IMG/VR virus record: IMGVR_UViG_3300033069_001022
Span: 26,960-90,959 of that record
DNA from: a virus
Lineage: Duplodnaviria > Heunggongvirae > Uroviricota > Caudoviricetes
Strand: one strand, 5' to 3'
DNA: 64,000 nt
Made by a program: the position numbers and the translations under genes
The notes under the pieces: generated by a model
Seen by the model: the letters and a program-made list of their open reading frames with translations, nothing else
The model's database searches: none
What the model was told of the DNA's origin: nothing
Shown here: positions 1,679 to 51,728 of the stretch, in pieces
How positions within the stretch are numbered: position 1 is the first letter of the stretch
Layout of the letters: every line of letters starts with the position of its first letter

Positions 1679-1999
1679 TTAGGGGTGAGTGGTTAAAATT
1701 CCGGCTTTAATAGCGCATCCAAAATCATGACAAGCATCATGCCCATCACAATCAGAACAAGGTTGCCAATTATCTTCTTCGTCATCTTCCGCACTCGGTA
1801 AATTTTGTAATTCAATGCTTTCTTTTTCTTGGTTTTCATAATACCTCATTCTATTGTCTGATAATTCCATTTCTTCAAAAGGAGCAATGTGTTTACAGCC
1901 AGCACATAGATAATGTCCGTCTGTTTGGCAATCTCCGCAATCGTGTTCCCAGCGTTTCATTTCAAAACAATCGCAATCTGTTCTTTTTTCGATACTCAT
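1679..1999 (-). CDS. hypothetical Cys/His-rich acidic protein (metal-binding?)
   Basis: ORF track. CDC, CGDC, CAGC, CSDCDGHDACHDFGC motifs. Confidence 0.5.
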   Translation of the reverse strand: MSIEKRTDCDCFEMKRWEHDCGDCQTDGHYLCAGCKHIAPFEEMELSDNRMRYYENQEKESIELQNLPSAEDDEEDNWQPCSDCDGHDACHDFGCAIKAGILTTHP

Positions 2000-2032
2000 A
2001 CTACTTTCTTTTATTTAACCTCCTTATTACAG

Positions 2033-2045
2033 GAGGATGGGTGAT
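2033..2045 (-). promoter_or_regulatory. G-rich intergenic motif GGAGGATGGGTGA, family copy
   Basis: Between the stop at 2053 and the ATG at 1999. Confidence 0.3.
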
Positions 2046-2052
2046 TAAATGG

Positions 2053-2229
2053 TTATCCGCCACAAGCCTCATCAACAGCATCACTTAAATCTTCACCTGC
2101 TGATGTTAATAAGTCTTTTGTGTTGTCTGGTTCATCACCTTTTACAATTGCTACTGCATCTGCAACAATAGCAACAGGCGTTAATGCAGCCTTAACAGTT
2201 GCGCTTATAATGTTTGAAAAGAATCCCAT
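2053..2229 (-). CDS. small hypothetical protein (58 aa, below the track cutoff)
   Basis: Manual translation MGFFSNIISATVKAALTPVAIVADAVAIVKGDEPDNTKDLLTSAGEDLSDAVDEACGG. GC-rich codon usage like its neighbours. Confidence 0.3.
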   Translation of the reverse strand: MGFFSNIISATVKAALTPVAIVADAVAIVKGDEPDNTKDLLTSAGEDLSDAVDEACGG

Positions 2230-2301
2230 TTTATTTATTTTTAATTGTTAGAAAATACTTTCTTTTCCACCACCACACACCAGTACGGTGTATCATGGTT
2301 G

Positions 2302-11039: not shown

Positions 11040-11348
11040 TTAGTGAAAAATTAAAACCCCCCTACCAAATGGTAAGGGGATTAATCCCAGTTTCGTAGGA
11101 ATTACTTCGCATTAGGCAACCATTCTCATAGCTGACCTTCTGAAGGAGATTACTCTGCCTTTTAGGTTTACTGATAATCTCTTATTACTGTTATATTGCT
11201 GTCAAAGCCGGTCAGCCCCACCATACCTTACTCAAGGGTATGGTACTTTTAAATGTACACCATGACTAAACATATGGTGGAGCTGTCGGGAATCGAACCC
11301 GAGTCCAAACAATCACCTGATAATAAGTGTCTACGACTATCATTTATT
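11040..11348 (-). ncRNA. tmRNA-like (ssrA-like) element with circularly permuted order: acceptor-like 3' piece (11275-11348), 54-nt hairpin spacer, then 5'-GGGGCUGA... piece running to a terminator (11040-11219)
   Basis: Minus strand reads ...GGACTCGGGTTCGATTCCCGACAGCTCCACCA (T-arm 5-7-5, acceptor 3' strand, encoded CCA; essentially the canonical tmRNA 3' end). After 54 nt (hairpin ccatacc/ggtatgg) comes GGGGCTGACCGGCTTTGACAGC... (the canonical tmRNA 5' start; GGGGCTG pairs with CAGCTCC including a G3:U70 wobble), ending in the hairpin CCCCTTACCA/TGGTAGGGGG plus TTTTAATTTTT. Confidence 0.4.
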
Positions 11349-13714: not shown

Positions 13715-14062
13715 TTAATAAATTTCAGGTGAATTAAATATTATTGGAATATATTGAGGACCATCTTCTCCCTTTTTAGCAGCCCAGTATCCTTGTTTAT
13801 AAACTAAACCAATGCCTCTTCCCCACACACATAGAGTATCTGCTTTTTCATCATAATGAAATCCTTCATCTTGTATATTACTAGAAGGTAGTGACATATT
13901 TACTTTTGGACTACCTACTCTATTATTACCGTCATAAGCCATAAATTCTCCTTCTAAACAGGTAATTTTTTCCTCCTCTACATATCTTTTTCTTAAAATT
14001 TTAAGTAATTTATCAATTTTCTGTTGCATAATTTTATTTTTAGTGATCTGGATTGGATTCAA
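13715..14062 (-). CDS. YEIY-tail family member (...NSPEIY); true start may be the internal MQQKIDKL at about 14029 because the annotated 5' end overlaps the tRNA-like gene
   Basis: ORF track. Confidence 0.5.
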   Translation of the reverse strand: MNPIQITKNKIMQQKIDKLLKILRKRYVEEEKITCLEGEFMAYDGNNRVGSPKVNMSLPSSNIQDEGFHYDEKADTLCVWGRGIGLVYKQGYWAAKKGEDGPQYIPIIFNSPEIY

Positions 14063-14117
14063 ACCAATGACCCACGGTTTAGAGGACCGTTGCTCTGTTC
14101 TGCTGAGCTACCAGACC
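14044..14117 (-). tRNA. tRNA-like gene, anticodon UCU (Arg) if functional; non-canonical D-loop (no GG), C33, T-loop TTTGAAT; no encoded CCA
   Basis: Manual fold: GGTCTGG/CCAGATC acceptor (7 bp, one GU), D stem GCTC/GAGC, anticodon stem ACGGT/ACCGT with loop CCTCTAA, T stem ATTGG/CCAAT. Confidence 0.45.
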
Positions 14118-22155: not shown

Positions 22156-22689
22156 ATGATGGAAAATAAATACTTTACCCCTTCTATAGAAGATGAAATA
22201 TGGAAAGATATTCCTGGTTATGAAGAATATTATGAAGTATCTAATACTGGACTTATAAGAAGAAAAGCTTACATAATGAAATGTAGATTAACTAATGATG
22301 GTTATCCAGCAATTACTTTATGTGGAGGAGGAAAGCAATTATCTAAGACTATACATAGAATAGTTGCAGAAGTATTTTTAAAGAATCCTGAGAATAAAGC
22401 ACAGGTAAATCATAAAGATGGAATAAAAGCAAATGCTATGGTTTCAAATTTAGAATGGGTAACACCTTCTGAGAATATAAATCATGCATTGAATTTGGGA
22501 TTAAAAGACAAAACTTGGCAGGATGGGGAGAAAAATATAAACTCTAAATTAACAAAAGAACAAGTTTTAGATATAAGAGAAAAGTGTAAAACTATGAAAA
22601 TTTCTGAAGTTCATAAAAACTTTTATCCAAATATGAATTACAATACTATTTATGGAATTAAAACAAAAAGATTATGGAAGACAATTTAA
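22156..22689 (+). mobile_element. HNH homing endonuclease (NUMOD4 + HNH_3), free-standing
   Basis: EIWKDIPGYEEYYEVSNTGLIRR matches the NUMOD4 motif. HRIVAEVFLKNPENKAQVNHKDGIKANAMVSNLEWVTPSENINHA matches the HNH core. Confidence 0.75.
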
Positions 22690-23890: not shown

Positions 23891-24217
23891 ATGTATACTG
23901 ATGAAGTTAAAATTGGTTGTGAGTCAAAGACTTATAATGAGTCTGAATTAATAAAGGGGTCCGAAGCAAAGTTGATATTTGCATTAGAGAAATTTAAAGA
24001 ACAAAATAACTATGCAGAAGATATCATATCTTCAATAAAGAATAGATTAGATACTATCTATATACCACAGGGAAAAAAAGTAGATCCTACAGGAGATAAA
24101 ATACCTGAAGTTATAGTTAATTGTGCTATGGATGAGTTTAATTCACAATTTAACAGGCTTTATAAAAATAATAAAGCTTTATCAGATATTCTTTCACATT
24201 TAAAAGAGATTATATAA
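23891..24217 (+). CDS. hypothetical protein (108 aa)
   Basis: ORF track. Confidence 0.45.
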   Translation: MYTDEVKIGCESKTYNESELIKGSEAKLIFALEKFKEQNNYAEDIISSIKNRLDTIYIPQGKKVDPTGDKIPEVIVNCAMDEFNSQFNRLYKNNKALSDILSHLKEII

Positions 24218-24750
24218 TGGCACATCCAGAACAAGTAGTTTTCTGTAATTCAGTTAAGCATAAATTTCCACAGAAATTCATTAATGCTGATATATTGGAT
24301 ATTGGTTCCCTTGATATTAATGGTAACAATAGATACTTGTTTTCTAATTGTACCTATACAGGAGTAGATATTGGAGCAGGAAGAAATGTGGATGTGGTAT
24401 CTAAAGGCCATGAATTCAAACCTGGTAAGCAATATGATATTGTAATCTCAACAGAGTGCTTTGAACATGATATGTATTGGAAAGAGACTATACAAAATTG
24501 TATAGATTTAACCAAGTCGGGAGGATTATTTATGTTTACCTGTGCTACAACTGGTAGACAGGAACATGGTACAACTAGAACCACACCACAAGATTCTCCT
24601 TTTACGCATACCCAGTTCAATGATTACTATATGAACCTGACTGAGTATGATATAAGGCAGATATCAGGTTTTGACAATTCATTTACAGAATTTAAATTTT
24701 CAACAAACCAAAATACAAAAGATTTGTATTTCTATGGTATAAAACAATAA
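24217..24750 (+). CDS. class I SAM-dependent methyltransferase
   Basis: ILDIGSLDINGN (motif I), YDIVISTECFEHD, LTKSGGLFMFT (post-I/II motifs). Confidence 0.6.
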   Translation: MAHPEQVVFCNSVKHKFPQKFINADILDIGSLDINGNNRYLFSNCTYTGVDIGAGRNVDVVSKGHEFKPGKQYDIVISTECFEHDMYWKETIQNCIDLTKSGGLFMFTCATTGRQEHGTTRTTPQDSPFTHTQFNDYYMNLTEYDIRQISGFDNSFTEFKFSTNQNTKDLYFYGIKQ

Positions 24751-31733: not shown

Positions 31734-32273
31734 ATGGGAATTTCTGAATTTGGACAATGGCTTGCCAGTACAATAGATAGGTTTGCAGATTATATAAAAC
31801 CTTGGGTTGTAGTTAATGGTTATGAAGAGGCAGTTATTTTGAGATGGGGGAAGTACCATAGAACTCTAAAACCTGGTACTTATCCCAAATTCCCTATAGC
31901 AGATTATGCCTTGACAGAGCATGTCAAACCAGATACAATGGAAATACCACCAATAACAATAACCACAGCAGACGGGAAACCTGTATCTATAGGTATGATT
32001 ATACATTATGATATTACTAATGTAGAAAAGTTTCTTATAGAAAATAATGATAGTCGGTCCAATATGTTGCAACTTGGCTCAGCAGAATTGTCAGATCATT
32101 TAGAAGATATTCCCTGGATAGATATAAAAAAGAAGACGACTAAAAATGCTGTACAAAGGAAAATTGCACCTTACTTTGACGCTATGGGTGTTAGAATTTT
32201 AGACCTCAAATTTAAAGATAAAGTTGAGGTTAGACCTTATAAATTGTTCACTGACAAAGAAAAAATAATTTAA
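31734..32273 (+). CDS. SPFH/band-7 (stomatin/prohibitin-like) domain protein
   Basis: VVVNGYEEAVILRWGKYHRTLKPGTYPKFPIADYALTEHVKPDTMEIPPITITTADGKPVSIGMIIHYDITNVEKF fits the SPFH core. Confidence 0.5.
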   Translation: MGISEFGQWLASTIDRFADYIKPWVVVNGYEEAVILRWGKYHRTLKPGTYPKFPIADYALTEHVKPDTMEIPPITITTADGKPVSIGMIIHYDITNVEKFLIENNDSRSNMLQLGSAELSDHLEDIPWIDIKKKTTKNAVQRKIAPYFDAMGVRILDLKFKDKVEVRPYKLFTDKEKII

Positions 32274-51209: not shown

Positions 51210-51728
51210 ATGGAACTGTTTAAAATTACACAAAGTAAAAACCCTTTTGCAACAGAATCTGTAATTAAAATACTTAATTATAGAATAGAACAAGAAGAAC
51301 AATCTTCTAGATTATATCACTCAATGTCCCTATGGTTAAATGATAATGGGTTTATGGGGGCAGCTAAAGCTTGGCAAAAGGATGCTGATGGGGAAATGGA
51401 ACACGCTAACTGGGCTAAAGAATATCTTCTAGATATGGGTGTTAAACCTACACTACCAGCTCTTCAAAAACCACCACATGATTTTACTGGATTATGTGAT
51501 ATAATAAGAATGTCTTTTGAACATGAAATAGTGGTTACGAAACAATGTAATGATTTAGCTAACAATGCTTTGAAGACAGGTGATAATCTTCTGTATCAGT
51601 TGGCTAATAAATTCCTACAAGAACAACAGGAAGAACTAGGTAAATTACAAACTTTACTTGATAAACTAGAAGCTTTTGGAGAAGACAAAATTGCACTTAG
51701 ATTACTTGATAATGAATTAGGCTCTTAA
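51210..51728 (+). CDS. ferritin-like (non-heme ferritin/Dps superfamily) protein
   Basis: Four-helix-bundle pattern with ferroxidase-site-like residues: ...EEQSSRLYHSM...EMEHANWAKEYL...FEHEIVVTKQ...FLQEQQEELGKL. Confidence 0.6.
   Translation: MELFKITQSKNPFATESVIKILNYRIEQEEQSSRLYHSMSLWLNDNGFMGAAKAWQKDADGEMEHANWAKEYLLDMGVKPTLPALQKPPHDFTGLCDIIRMSFEHEIVVTKQCNDLANNALKTGDNLLYQLANKFLQEQQEELGKLQTLLDKLEAFGEDKIALRLLDNELGS

Follow-up and report, generated by a model that had tools for sequence, protein, structure and literature searches.

The window, that is, the whole 64,000-nt stretch of viral DNA analyzed here, carries on its minus strand (11342-11053) a phage-borne element which the Rfam covariance model, the covariation among five variants and a tag frame conserved in 35 genes support as a real tmRNA gene in the circularly permuted, two-piece order. 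The gene, whose span is ~290 nt with the spacer, runs from an acceptor piece through a spacer hairpin and a coding piece to a terminator. It is quite probably a functional permuted ssrA of a distant crAss-like phage, within a lineage of Bacteroidota type in which the permutation came from a one-piece gene. tmRNA is the RNA that frees stalled ribosomes, and its permutation has counted as a rare event, linked to three bacterial lineages and mitochondria. The group of two-piece genes in question, in viruses of Bacteroidota, is so far undescribed, and the bacteria themselves keep their own gene in the normal order.

The features of the gene are the following, all of them on the minus strand.

11328..11342 (-), 5′ extension of the acceptor piece, UGAUAGUCGUAGACA; near-invariant in five variants though non-coding
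11342-11335 (-), 5′ strand of the tentative helix X, UGAUAGUC; 8/8 pairs with GAUUAUCA in all five variants
11321..11327 (-), P2b 5′ strand CUUAUUA, in the acceptor piece; 7 pairs with 11187-11181 (RNAalifold)
11306..11313 (-), P2a 5′ strand AUUGUUUG, with one bulged U; 7 pairs with 11201-11195, in agreement with the RF04321 alignment
11305-11303 (-), GAC after the P2a 5′ strand
11286..11302 (-), T-arm UCGGG UUCGAUU CCCGA (RF04321 and covariation)
11285-11279 (-), acceptor stem 3′ strand CAGCUCC; 3/7 pairs double-changed among the variants
11278 (-), discriminator A
11277-11275 (-), encoded CCA
11220..11274 (-), spacer of 55 nt, presumed to be excised, with the hairpin CAUACC-CUUGAGUAA-GGUAUG (RNAalifold; three pairs double-changed)
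11213..11219 (-), acceptor stem 5′ strand GGGGCUG, with RNase P presumed to cut at G1, where the coding piece starts
11202..11212 (-), D-loop analogue ACCGGCUUUGA, within the 21-mer GGGGCTGACCGGCTTTGACAG
11195..11201 (-), P2a 3′ strand CAGCAAU (covariation)
11181..11187 (-), P2b 3′ strand UAAUAAG (covariation)
11172..11179 (-), 3′ strand of the tentative helix X, GAUUAUCA; excludes the local hairpin GAGAUUA/UAAUCUC
11160..11171 (-), A-rich single-stranded linker GUAAACCUAAAA before the resume codon; aligns with the ...AUAAC(U/C) box of the lineage
11112..11159 (-), tag frame of 15 codons, GRVISFRRSAMRMVA; resume codon GGC at 11159-11157, stop UAA at 11114-11112
11053..11082 (-), intrinsic terminator CCCCUUACC-AUUU-GGUAGGGG and U-run; stem-loop 11082-11055 of 12 pairs

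The first-pass annotation had read in these letters a near-canonical tmRNA 3′ end with encoded CCA, followed by a canonical 5′ start, and both are in place (11302-11275, and GGGGCUG at 11219-11213). The acceptor strands pair as it had proposed, GGGGCUG with CAGCUCC at 7/7 positions including G3:U70, and the terminator that it placed ~170 nt downstream has a U-run ending at 11053, 167 nt past G1. The hairpin of the spacer also holds, but the spacer is 55 nt long (11274-11220) and not 54. The tRNA-like domain is complete, with a 7-bp acceptor stem carrying G3:U70, a T-arm with a UUCGAnn loop, the discriminator A and CCA.

The Rfam model RF04321 (tmRNA_permuted) matches 11327-11112 (-) at full length (model positions 1-213 of 213) with 65.4 bits, well above its gathering score of 47 (E = 2.4e-10), so that the annotation's proposal of a covariance search is answered in favor of a tmRNA. 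The models alpha_tmRNA, beta_tmRNA and cyano_tmRNA, which had been named for the same purpose, gave no match at the gathering threshold in the window; at E ≤ 10, the best overlapping clan member is a partial match of the standard model RF00023 (46.3 bits). ARAGORN, also proposed there, made no call at the locus. We also scanned the two strands of the 64-kb window for a T-arm plus a 7-bp acceptor stem carrying G3:U70, arranged in the permuted order, and exactly one match came up. The precursor folds at -93.2 kcal/mol, with z = -4.4 against shuffles.

At least 35 phage genes make up the lineage of this gene; beyond the window family they were chosen by a pattern that fixes the D-loop analogue. 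The window family has five variants from related phage contigs, namely the window (identical to L080), L049 (identical to L050), L053, L081 and L083. The helices of the RNA are under selection. In detail, 36/36 modelled base pairs form in all five variants, and 13 pairs are changed on both sides, all of them in P2b, P2a, the T-arm or the acceptor stem. Shuffles never reached the observed pairing or covariation score (0/500) and slid controls pair at 40-51%; a chance match is thus ruled out by the pairing and covariation among the variants. The 14 pairs of P2a and P2b are 100% paired in 5/5 variants and eight are double-changed (five in P2a and three in P2b). The acceptor stem reads GGGGCUG/CAGCUCC in the window versus GGGGGAC/GUCCUCC in L049 and L053, and this co-variation of both strands leaves unsupported the annotation's suggestion that the 5′ piece is a mimic or decoy. 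G3:U70 is invariant in 5/5 variants and in 34/34 lineage members, and all five T-stem pairs are canonical in 34 members, with at most four pair types per position.

Run on the five variants, RNAalifold arrives independently at P2a and P2b, at the T-arm, and also at the spacer hairpin and the terminator. The MAFFT and RNAalifold consensus of 34 lineage genes contains the T-arm and the acceptor stem only, as the P2 regions are not alignable at the sequence level. Outside the tRNA-like domain and P2, the terminator stem shows compensated changes in L049, L053 and L081, and in L083 the terminator differs while its position is unchanged. The spacer ranges from 45 to 67 nt across the lineage.

The permuted order itself is constant, with the 3′ half of the tRNA-like domain placed ahead of the 5′ half in 5/5 variants and in 30 further genes. 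This recurrence of one architecture in 35 genes bears on the idea of an attP remnant, in which the 3′ piece would be a copy of a host ssrA 3′ end kept for integration and the GGGG... segment fortuitous. tmRNA genes are indeed common integration sites and their 3′ ends are often carried by phages (PMC9004378; PMC11590407). However, the acceptor 5′ strand co-varies with the 3′ strand at three double changes, and P2a and P2b do so too, while none of the 23 host genes examined has the T-stem UCGGG/CCCGA. The absence of an integrase, which the annotation had already held against an attP copy, extends to the 30 window ORFs screened (10 ORFs of ≥200 aa and 20 of 115-179 aa). The covariation, together with the lack of an integrase in the ORFs tested, refutes the attP alternative and leaves it next to no probability.

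A further helix, X, is proposed tentatively to join the 5′ extension and the coding piece. It shows a compensatory change in L122 (UGGUA/UACCA versus UGAUA/UAUCA), and its duplex has z = -2.0 to -3.0 in the window family. RNAfold prefers instead a PK1-like hairpin, GAGAUUA/UAAUCUC, which was rejected: its 3′ strand lies inside the tag frame (GUA AUC UCC) and it competes with helix X. A closing helix C between UCGUA of the 5′ extension and UGCGA past the stop was predicted by RNAalifold and cofolding and was also dropped, being unsupported lineage-wide with 0/34 genes at z < -2 in a duplex test of low power, where even P2 reaches a median z of only -1.05.

The annotation had also asked for P2 and pseudoknot pairing; P2a and P2b answer the first part, whereas no PK1 or PK2 in the coding piece is supported by folding without pseudoknot prediction. 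The distance from G1 to the resume codon is 60 nt in the window and 56-65 nt across the lineage. In the window, the D-loop analogue, P2a, P2b, helix X and the 12-nt linker take up this stretch, and in the whole lineage a canonical PK1, normally important to tmRNA function, would have too little room.

The annotation had found no convincing tag frame by eye. The frame exists, from GGC through 14 further codons ending in GCC to UAA, and encodes GRVISFRRSAMRMVA; it was missed because the peptide ends in -MVA and not in -LAA. In 35/35 lineage genes the frame is colinear, opens from the same alignment column and is closed by a stop; 23 of the 35 tags have exactly 15 codons. The lineage tags share xKVIxLxxxPLRMxA with hydrophobic ends, and the peptide is under selection. 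Within the window family the tags vary by R7K, S9P, M13I, V14A, synonymous GCU/GCC and a UAA or UAG stop, and between helix X and the stop the five variants carry indels in the A-rich linker only, the frame being free of them. The 3′ half of the frame can also form a GNRA-capped hairpin, whose pairs are kept by AUG/AUA and GUU/GCU. Since some tag substitutions thereby preserve structure, the coding signal in the five-member family is confounded with it, and the coding argument therefore rests on the peptide conservation across the lineage. A 6-codon mini-frame, GCU AUG AGA AUG GUU GCC (AMRMVA), which would have implied a "miniaturised" gene, was rejected, as alignment with L111, L122 and the lineage sets the start at GGC with 15 codons; the coding piece has a normal size for the lineage. 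The tag is basic, with three Arg, unlike typical tags, and its hydrophobic -RMVA end is similar to -RMAA, the degron found in some tmRNAs of Bacteroidota.

This conservation also speaks against an SmpB-titrating decoy, that is, an RNA that mimics the host tRNA-like domain and inhibits host trans-translation, which we give a slim chance. Strong inhibition of tmRNA, perhaps through titration of SmpB, is reported for an RNA that resembles the DS6A sequence and amounts to hardly more than a tRNA-like domain (PMC4131195; PMC11915505), and the window gene shares with a decoy of this kind the absence of a supported canonical PK1/PK2, an atypically basic putative tag and no phage SmpB among the same 30 ORFs. 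However, a pure decoy needs no tag frame, and the 15-codon frame, the peptide pattern, the hydrophobic C-terminus and the stop are kept in 35/35 genes, with indels outside the frame only. Conservation likewise extends to G3:U70, to the discriminator A and to CCA or its position, which fits charging. The mycobacteriophage DS6A gene is, as the window gene, a phage-borne and strongly reduced tmRNA derivative, but it has the standard order and no tag frame, and a DS6A-like RNA is inhibitory (PMC4131195), while the window gene retains its frame.

For a functional permuted ssrA, the following course may be envisaged. The gene would be transcribed from the minus strand, probably in one transcript with two small ORFs upstream, since they are not separated from the gene by any promoter-like site: no sigma-70-like promoter was found directly upstream, and the nearest (11848-11820) follows a terminator at 11883-11856. 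The 5′ extension begins 7 nt past the stop of the upstream ORF. In the precursor, the 3′ half (P2 strands, T-arm, acceptor 3′ strand and ACCA) would pair with the 5′ half that follows it. RNase P would cut before G1 (11219) and the 3′ end would be trimmed to the CCA at 11275, with loss of the 55-nt spacer, so that the predicted acceptor piece ends in ...CUCCACCA at 11275 and the coding piece starts with GGGGCUG at 11219. The products would be an acceptor piece of ~65 nt and a coding piece of ~110-167 nt, joined through the acceptor stem, P2a and P2b, and probably through helix X as well. Host AlaRS would charge the RNA with alanine via G3:U70, and entry into stalled ribosomes would take place with host SmpB and EF-Tu. 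Translation would resume at GGC, add (A)GRVISFRRSAMRMVA and release the ribosome at UAA. The likely gain is extra ribosome rescue in infection, when mRNA decay produces non-stop messages, and the phage-specific tag body may contribute something more.

The type of the tRNA-like domain points to Bacteroidota. An exact copy of the 21-mer GGGGCTGACCGGCTTTGACAG is present in 26 of 185,579 species genomes, and 24 of the 26 are Bacteroidota; no cyanobacterium or proteobacterium among these species has a match. A recognisable one-piece 3′ end accompanies 24 of the matches, one is cut by the end of its locus and one, in an Actinomycetota MAG, has none, and the permuted order is found in 0/26 of the matching genomes. 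The 25-nt 5′ half agrees at 23-25/25 positions with the hosts, a set itself chosen on the 5′ 21-mer, versus 17-21/25 with 30 classical or marine permuted genes. Translation resumes at GGC in 21/23 hosts, nearly all classical permuted genes have GCA at this place, and three hosts have the tag end RMAA with the same codons (AGA AUG GCN GCC UAA). Since the tRNA-like domain, the resume codon and the tag end are all of Bacteroidota type, the permutation arose, most simply, from a one-piece gene of that type, independently of the alpha-proteobacterial, beta-proteobacterial and cyanobacterial lineages, an argument built on short, constrained sequences.

The alternative is descent from a known two-piece lineage (alpha, beta, cyano or their phages), the host-like character having been gained, once the gene had moved into phages of Bacteroidota, by gene conversion with host ssrA or by convergence on SmpB, AlaRS and proteases of the host. 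We consider it unlikely, yet with a real share of the probability. The tRNA-like domain is short and highly constrained, as seen in the 17-21/25 positions of the 5′ half that classical permuted genes share, and all groups have a ...UAAAY box ahead of the resume codon. Moreover, alpha_tmRNA reaches 45.9 against 50 on L083, the closest cultured phage has a cyanobacterial host, and the mRNA-like part shows no significant similarity to host and one-piece phage tmRNAs beyond the last 14-19 nt of the tag. Against this descent stand both tRNA-like halves, the GGC resume codon and the RMAA-type end, all of them of Bacteroidota type, and the tags of xKVIxLxxxPLRMxA form are unrelated to ANDxxxALAA. The alpha and cyano models score below threshold and match nothing outside the tRNA-like domain: alpha_tmRNA covers model positions 82-177 on L083, and on the gene of the Maribacter phage Panino alpha_tmRNA gives 29.9 and cyano_tmRNA 30.2 against 70. 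The alpha, beta and cyano tags have a GCA resume codon and AND...ALAA or ...VAA, whereas the window has GGC and GRVISFRRSAMRMVA. Finally, the family-level relatives of the window phage carry one-piece, Bacteroidota-like genes. A comparison of the spacer with the flanks of one-piece phage genes gave no trace of a tandem duplication.

There is about an even chance that these genes represent a further independent permutation that spread to Bacteroidota phages unrelated to each other (crAss-like phages, Panino-like podoviruses and phiST-like siphoviruses) whose hosts all have the standard gene, with a compact RNA lacking canonical PK1/PK2 and a tag made of a phage body and a host-type degron. The 2025 tmRNA database assigns every permuted gene to alpha, beta or cyano; among the 97,179 tmRNAs of the database, 48 entries marked "permuted" are attributed to MAGs of Bacteroidota.

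Compared with the bacterial two-piece tmRNAs (RF01849, RF01850 and RF01851, merged in RF04321), the window gene shares the order of acceptor piece, intervening segment and coding piece, the tRNA-like domain built from two RNAs, G3:U70, the T-arm, P2 and the downstream tag frame. It differs from those of Alphaproteobacteria, some Betaproteobacteria and some Cyanobacteria, with GCA and ANDxxxALAA, in its GGC and GRVISFRRSAMRMVA, and in a tRNA-like domain of Bacteroidota type with a D-loop analogue of about 12 nt ending in UUUGAC. Known two-piece coding pieces typically keep PK1 and PK2 (PMC3985003), none being detectable here, and unlike the bacterial two-piece lineages, the likely hosts of the window phage have one-piece genes.

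The two-piece architecture noted by the first-pass annotation stands, but its premise of a restriction to a few bacterial lineages is out of date, since such genes have already been reported in phages: of 133 unique phage tmRNAs, 53 had been classed as two-piece, most of them from marine phages, and the marine genes have been proposed to help or reprogram the hijacked translation apparatus (PMC9004378). The marine myophages (OM43 phage Melnitz, the Pelagibacter phages HTVC008M and Mosig, and cyanomyophages) resemble the window phage in a permuted ssrA in a lytic phage without integrase. Their genes resemble the alpha and cyano lineages, with GCA (nearly all) and ...ALAA tags in 30 distinct examples, which is not the case for the window gene. 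In contrast to theirs, the window gene has no associated riboswitch, none being found near it in Rfam scans.

The gene of the cultured phage Panino (PP540027.1, 27557-27889), annotated only as "SsrA", is a member of the lineage with 62.2 bits for RF04321. It is permuted, with the tRNA-like domain GGGGGUGAUUGGAUUUGAC..., a GGU resume codon 60 nt from G1 and the tag GKVMNVSFAPTVRQFA, and its host is a cultured member of the Flavobacteriaceae (Bacteroidota). Panino is unrelated to the window phage, being a 77-kb podovirus with 20 tRNAs and an integrase, and its gene lies inside the tRNA cluster and is detected by ARAGORN, which misses the window gene.

One-piece tmRNAs of Bacteroidota (e.g. Porphyromonas, Muribaculaceae, Sphingobacteriales and Chitinophagales) have their first 21-25 nt identical to the window, a 3′ half alike at 25-33/36 positions and the GGC resume codon, with the RMAA end in the same codons in three species. 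They are 365-409 nt long, with pseudoknots and tags of 9-10 residues (mostly GENNYALAA), against ~290 nt and 15 residues in the window. The crAss-like contigs L041-L044, L046 and L048 belong to the same phage group, with a ParB-like protein ~60% identical and the two-arm genome, and their one-piece tmRNA genes lie in the same arm downstream of ParB and share the GGCUUUGAC motif. These genes have the standard order, 397-414 nt and tags of 26-27 residues, and no similarity to the mRNA-like part and flanks of the window gene was detectable.

If the separate lineage is true, it would offer an independent case for why permutation arises and persists, with compactness of phage genomes as one candidate. 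It would also provide a natural minimal tmRNA (~60 nt from G1 to the resume codon, no canonical PK1) with which to test the parts that trans-translation needs, and its tRNA-like domain and degron type would serve as a host-linked marker for uncultured phages of Bacteroidota, including distant crAss-like ones. With an independent origin, tagging of stalled host and phage proteins by the phage would be distinguishable from tagging by the host. The phage-specific tag makes the role of the phage tmRNA testable by mass spectrometry; with a VA-to-DD tag variant, peptides would end in ...GRVISFRRSAMRMDD.

A gap in detection by ARAGORN and the Rfam threshold would be exposed as well. ARAGORN misses 5/5 genes of the window family and 9/29 lineage genes of IMG/VR, and the RF04321 threshold misses three of the five family genes (L083 has 64.8 bits, L081 42.7, L053 30.8 and L049 29.7). 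Scans with the invariant blocks of the window family returned only the L049/L050 contigs in IMG/VR and one metagenome contig, and a first pattern scan gave 40 permuted genes of classical marine type, none close to the window gene. BLAST of the element and of the flanking 15 kb against deposited phages gave no relative, nor did the one-piece crAss-type tmRNA gene have a match there. Table S1 of PMC9004378 gives the tmRNA of Cellulophaga phage phi14:2 as "linear". The same work lists that of Cellulophaga phage phi4:1 as "Permuted", a probable artefact, since what ARAGORN called there extends across a tRNA cluster and lacks a valid tRNA-like domain.

As to the phage, no tmRNA was found in the nearest cultured relative, Leptolyngbya phage Lbo-JY46, or in the syntenic region of phi13:1, while the family-level relatives have their one-piece tmRNA in the same genome arm. 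The closest cultured phage by terminase (35%) infects a cyanobacterium, and the Bacteroidota host of the window phage is for this reason a presumed one. The terminase and portal of the window match Crassvirales of Bacteroides, Flavobacterium and Cellulophaga, and the DNA polymerase III alpha of L120 is 63% identical to that of Cellulophaga phages.

The element on the minus strand of the window (11342-11053) is a circularly permuted tmRNA gene, under selection both in its helices and in its tag peptide. Its acceptor piece precedes its coding piece, and the two pieces are joined by the helices P2a and P2b.

11342-11328 (-), conserved 5' extension
11327-11321 (-), P2b 5' strand
11313-11306 (-), P2a 5' strand, then GAC
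11302-11286 (-), T-arm
11285-11279 (-), acceptor 3' strand CAGCUCC
11278-11275 (-), ACCA
11274-11220 (-), spacer, 55 nt
11219-11213 (-), acceptor 5' strand GGGGCUG, followed by the D-loop analogue
11201-11195 (-), P2a 3' strand
11187-11181 (-), P2b 3' strand, followed by the mRNA-like part
11082-11053 (-), intrinsic terminator

The Rfam model RF04321 (tmRNA_permuted) matched 11327-11112 over its full length with 65.4 bits (E = 2.4e-10; threshold 47 bits). This agrees with the permuted order proposed in the first-pass annotation, except that the spacer is 55 and not 54 nt long. Of the two detection routes suggested there, Rfam thus recovered the element above threshold, whereas ARAGORN made no tmRNA call on it. 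In our own scan of both strands, a T-arm with a 7-bp acceptor stem carrying G3:U70 in permuted order was located at a single site of the window. The element has a G+C content of 42%, against 32% for the genome, and a folding z of -4.4. The main reading of that annotation, i.e., a two-piece tmRNA gene in a phage, is upheld by the RF04321 match, by covariation and by a tag frame conserved throughout the lineage.

Close relatives with a homologous element were reached via the flanking genes. These are the IMG/VR contigs L049 and L050 (identical here), the JGI metagenome contig L053 and the Logan assemblies L081 and L083, so that five distinct sequences were compared, including the window (identical to L080). 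In the spacer-excised alignment, all 36 modelled pairs are formed in 5/5 sequences. Both-sided changes are found in 13 pairs (P2b 3, P2a 5, T-stem 2 and acceptor stem 3), while G3:U70 is invariant. The observed pairing or covariation was reached by 0/500 shuffles, and pairing falls to 40-51% when the partners are slid as a control. When run on the full precursors, RNAalifold independently recovered both P2 helices (P2a and P2b), the T-arm and the terminator, as well as a spacer hairpin that co-varies. Two versions of the acceptor stem occur: L049 and L053 have GGGGGAC/GUCCUCC, and the window, like L081 and L083, has GGGGCUG/CAGCUCC. Since the stem differs on both strands between variants, a chance GGGG is excluded, as is the attP copy or remnant considered initially. 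Three of the five family members score below the RF04321 threshold (L081 42.7, L053 30.8 and L049 29.7 bits).

The T-stem is UCGGG/CCCGA, with an encoded CCA, in the window, L081 and L083. In L049 (5714-5740) and at the equivalent site of L053 it is AGGGG/CCCCU, with a 3' ACAA and no encoded CCA, and both features recur in L041 and L042, two related phages with one-piece genes. This likeness would reflect either an exchange of the tRNA-like domain between phage tmRNA genes or convergence.

No convincing tag frame had been seen by eye, but one emerged from comparison across the lineage. A degenerate IMG/VR scan that required permuted order and a D-loop analogue of the window type retrieved 38 loci, 29 of which have a valid permuted tRNA-like domain. 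ARAGORN reports a permuted tmRNA in 20 of these 29, with tags including DKVINLFNAPLRMVA, AKVIQLNRTPLRMAA and AKVINLFNAPMRLAA. All coding pieces of the lineage align colinearly from their first nucleotide (G1, 11219 in the window) to the stop. The frame starting at the shared resume-codon column is open and stop-closed in 35/35 sequences, with 15 codons in 23/35. In the window it runs from GGC (11159) to GCC (11115), followed by UAA (11114-11112), and encodes GRVISFRRSAMRMVA. The respective tags are GRVISFKRSAMRIAA in L049, GRVISFRRPAMRMAA in L053, GRVISFRRPAMRIAA in L081 and GRVISFRRSAMRMAA, with the stop UAG, in L083. Indels among the five variants are confined to the linker before GGC and the region after the stop. 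A shorter frame read initially, AMRMVA, was rejected because the alignment places the start at the shared column. A GNRA-capped hairpin can also fold from the 3' half of this frame, with its pairs preserved by some of the substitutions, so the case for coding rests more on the peptide pattern seen across the lineage.

Two-piece tmRNAs had been regarded in the first-pass annotation as tied to a few bacterial lineages. Phage-borne cases are documented, with two-piece calls in 53 of 133 unique phage tmRNAs, mostly from marine phages (PMC9004378), and the present gene is not the first of its kind in a phage. The novelty is its lineage, for which no description was found in the literature searched. 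Classical permuted phage genes (40 loci, first scan) have GCA resume codons and ANDxxxALAA tags, unlike the window gene. Of 185,579 species genomes, 26 contain an exact match to the first 21 nt of its coding piece, GGGGCTGACCGGCTTTGACAG, and 24 of these genomes belong to Bacteroidota. In 24/26 matches a recognisable one-piece 3' end lies 365-407 nt downstream; the remaining ones are a match cut by the locus end and an Actinomycetota MAG without recognisable 3' end. Permuted order was found in 0/26. The 25-nt 5' half of the window gene agrees at 23-25/25 positions with these hosts, but at 17-21/25 with the classical permuted genes. The resume codon GGC is shared with 21 of 23 hosts examined. 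In three hosts, two Sphingobacteriales and Bacteroidetes bacterium RIFCSPLOWO2_12_FULL_37_12, the tag ends in RMAA; the codons, AGA AUG GCN GCC UAA, are those seen in the phage family. The alpha and cyano models, also proposed as a check, match only the tRNA-like domain of the relatives, below threshold. In the tmRNA database every permuted gene is classed as alpha, beta or cyano, and Bacteroidota have 24,380 standard vs 48 permuted genes. Whether the permutation arose anew from a one-piece gene of Bacteroidota type, apart from these three lineages, is evenly balanced.

In Cellulophaga phage phi4:1 (NC_021788.1, 89919-90580; L132 39919-40580), listed as "Permuted" in Table S1 (PMC9004378), ARAGORN reports a "permuted tmRNA" consisting of 662 nt of tRNA cluster with an implausible tag. 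No permuted arrangement of a T-arm and a G3:U70 acceptor stem is present at this locus, and the call is probably a false positive.

The stretch from G1 to the resume codon is 60 nt in the window and 56-65 nt across the lineage. Its length is taken up by the D-loop analogue, the strands of P2a and P2b with an internal loop between them, the 8-nt GAUUAUCA and a 12-nt A-rich linker, so that a canonical PK1 does not fit. Standard tools detect this lineage poorly; it is of Bacteroidota type and apparently without pseudoknots. The 5' extension UGAUAGUC hardly varies, and in 5/5 variants it can form an 8/8 pairing with GAUUAUCA (duplex z of -2 to -3 in the window family), and the related locus L122 shows a double compensatory change. 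Tentatively, this "helix X" is proposed to extend P2 by a third segment. Neither the local hairpins nor a closing helix downstream of the stop codon found support. In L083 an unrelated terminator takes the place of everything past the stop codon, so the hairpin that follows the stop is dispensable. Immediately 3' of that tmRNA gene, on the other strand, lies a 192-aa ORF (L083 2162-2740).

The lineage includes Maribacter phage Panino, a cultured podovirus of a flavobacterium (62.2 bits, tag GKVMNVSFAPTVRQFA). The annotation of the gene says no more than SsrA, and the permutation is not mentioned in the paper on this phage. Relatives of contig L120 are Cellulophaga phages phiST and phi13:1 and Tenacibaculum phage Larrie (DNA polymerase III alpha 57-63% identical), and the terminase and portal of L103 are crAss-like. 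L111, aligning at 69% over 193 nt, and L122 connect the window family to the remaining lineage. Judging from these contexts, the lineage is present in unrelated phage types, and its predicted hosts are Bacteroidota wherever inferable.

Family-level relatives of the window phage have its two-arm architecture and a ParB-like protein that is ~60% identical. Their tmRNA gene, where there is one, lies downstream of ParB and is a one-piece gene of 397-414 nt (RF00023, 63-88 bits); others have none.

L041 7285-7698, one-piece tmRNA
L042, L043 and L048 7249-7662, one-piece tmRNA
L044 5766-6179, one-piece tmRNA
L046 8006-8402, one-piece tmRNA

As a tmRNA is absent from the relatives L045 and L047, its carriage is variable in the crAss-like group. 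The one-piece genes lie 0.5-1.3 kb from the ParB-like gene, and their tags are unusually long (26-27 residues, e.g., VKSQSERVEEGASIIAMAFASELALAA). The crAss-like Cellulophaga phage phi14:2 is given a "linear" tmRNA in Table S1 (PMC9004378).

The window element has the alanine identity elements, the discriminator base and CCA. By analogy with known two-piece tmRNAs (PMC3985003), RNase P would cleave at G1, the 3' end would mature at CCA with loss of the spacer, and the alanylated molecule would be delivered by host SmpB and EF-Tu. Translation would then resume at GGC, with the tag added and release at UAA. The proposed gain for the phage is extra ribosome rescue in infected cells, with a tag whose body is phage-specific and whose end is a degron of host type. 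The chief functional alternative is a DS6A-type decoy that titrates SmpB; the conserved tag frame makes it less likely. The tmRNA gene is real and conserved and very probably functional.

The window is part of a phage genome (G+C ~32%) with two divergent arms. Terminase, portal and a major capsid protein of Crassvirus type (PF23898, E = 5e-26) are encoded in the plus-strand arm, and small ORFs densely fill the minus-strand arm. The tmRNA gene is located in the latter, between a 58-aa ORF (11525-11349) and a 108-aa ORF (11024-10698). Neither SmpB nor an integrase was found among 30 window ORFs screened. A terminator (11883-11856, -) directly upstream of a promoter-like site (11848-11820, -) suggests a single transcription unit of a 61-aa ORF, the 58-aa ORF and the tmRNA gene. 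The sole tRNA of the window, tRNA-Arg (UCU) at 14043-14117 (-) (ARAGORN; Rfam 59.3 bits), lies in the same arm ~2.7 kb upstream of the tmRNA gene, and L049 has a tRNA-Cys at the corresponding position.

Leptolyngbya phage Lbo-JY46 (PP438436.1) shows 35% identity in the terminase, 30% in the portal and 25% in the capsid, and Crassvirales of Bacteroides, Flavobacterium, Cellulophaga and Azobacteroides show 23-29%. By protein similarity, the closest deposited relatives are very distant. Lbo-JY46, the closest cultured one, has ~20 tRNAs and no tmRNA; as it is a cyanophage, protein similarity does not decide which hosts this deep crAss-like branch infects.

Other genes of the plus strand are the following.

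22156-22689 (+), HNH + NUMOD4 homing endonuclease
24217-24750 (+), methyltransferase
31734-32273 (+), SPFH/Band-7 gene adjoining the portal gene; an SPFH protein is also encoded by phi4:1
51210-51728 (+), ferritin-like protein gene between virion structural genes

A 283-bp segment of the window (1996-2274) is 88% identical to L111 4543-4823, a viral contig otherwise unrelated, where it lies just downstream of that contig's own permuted tmRNA. The product of its 58-aa ORF (2053-2229, -) is 100% identical to the L111 counterpart. The segment may be a small mobile gene travelling with or near these tmRNA genes.
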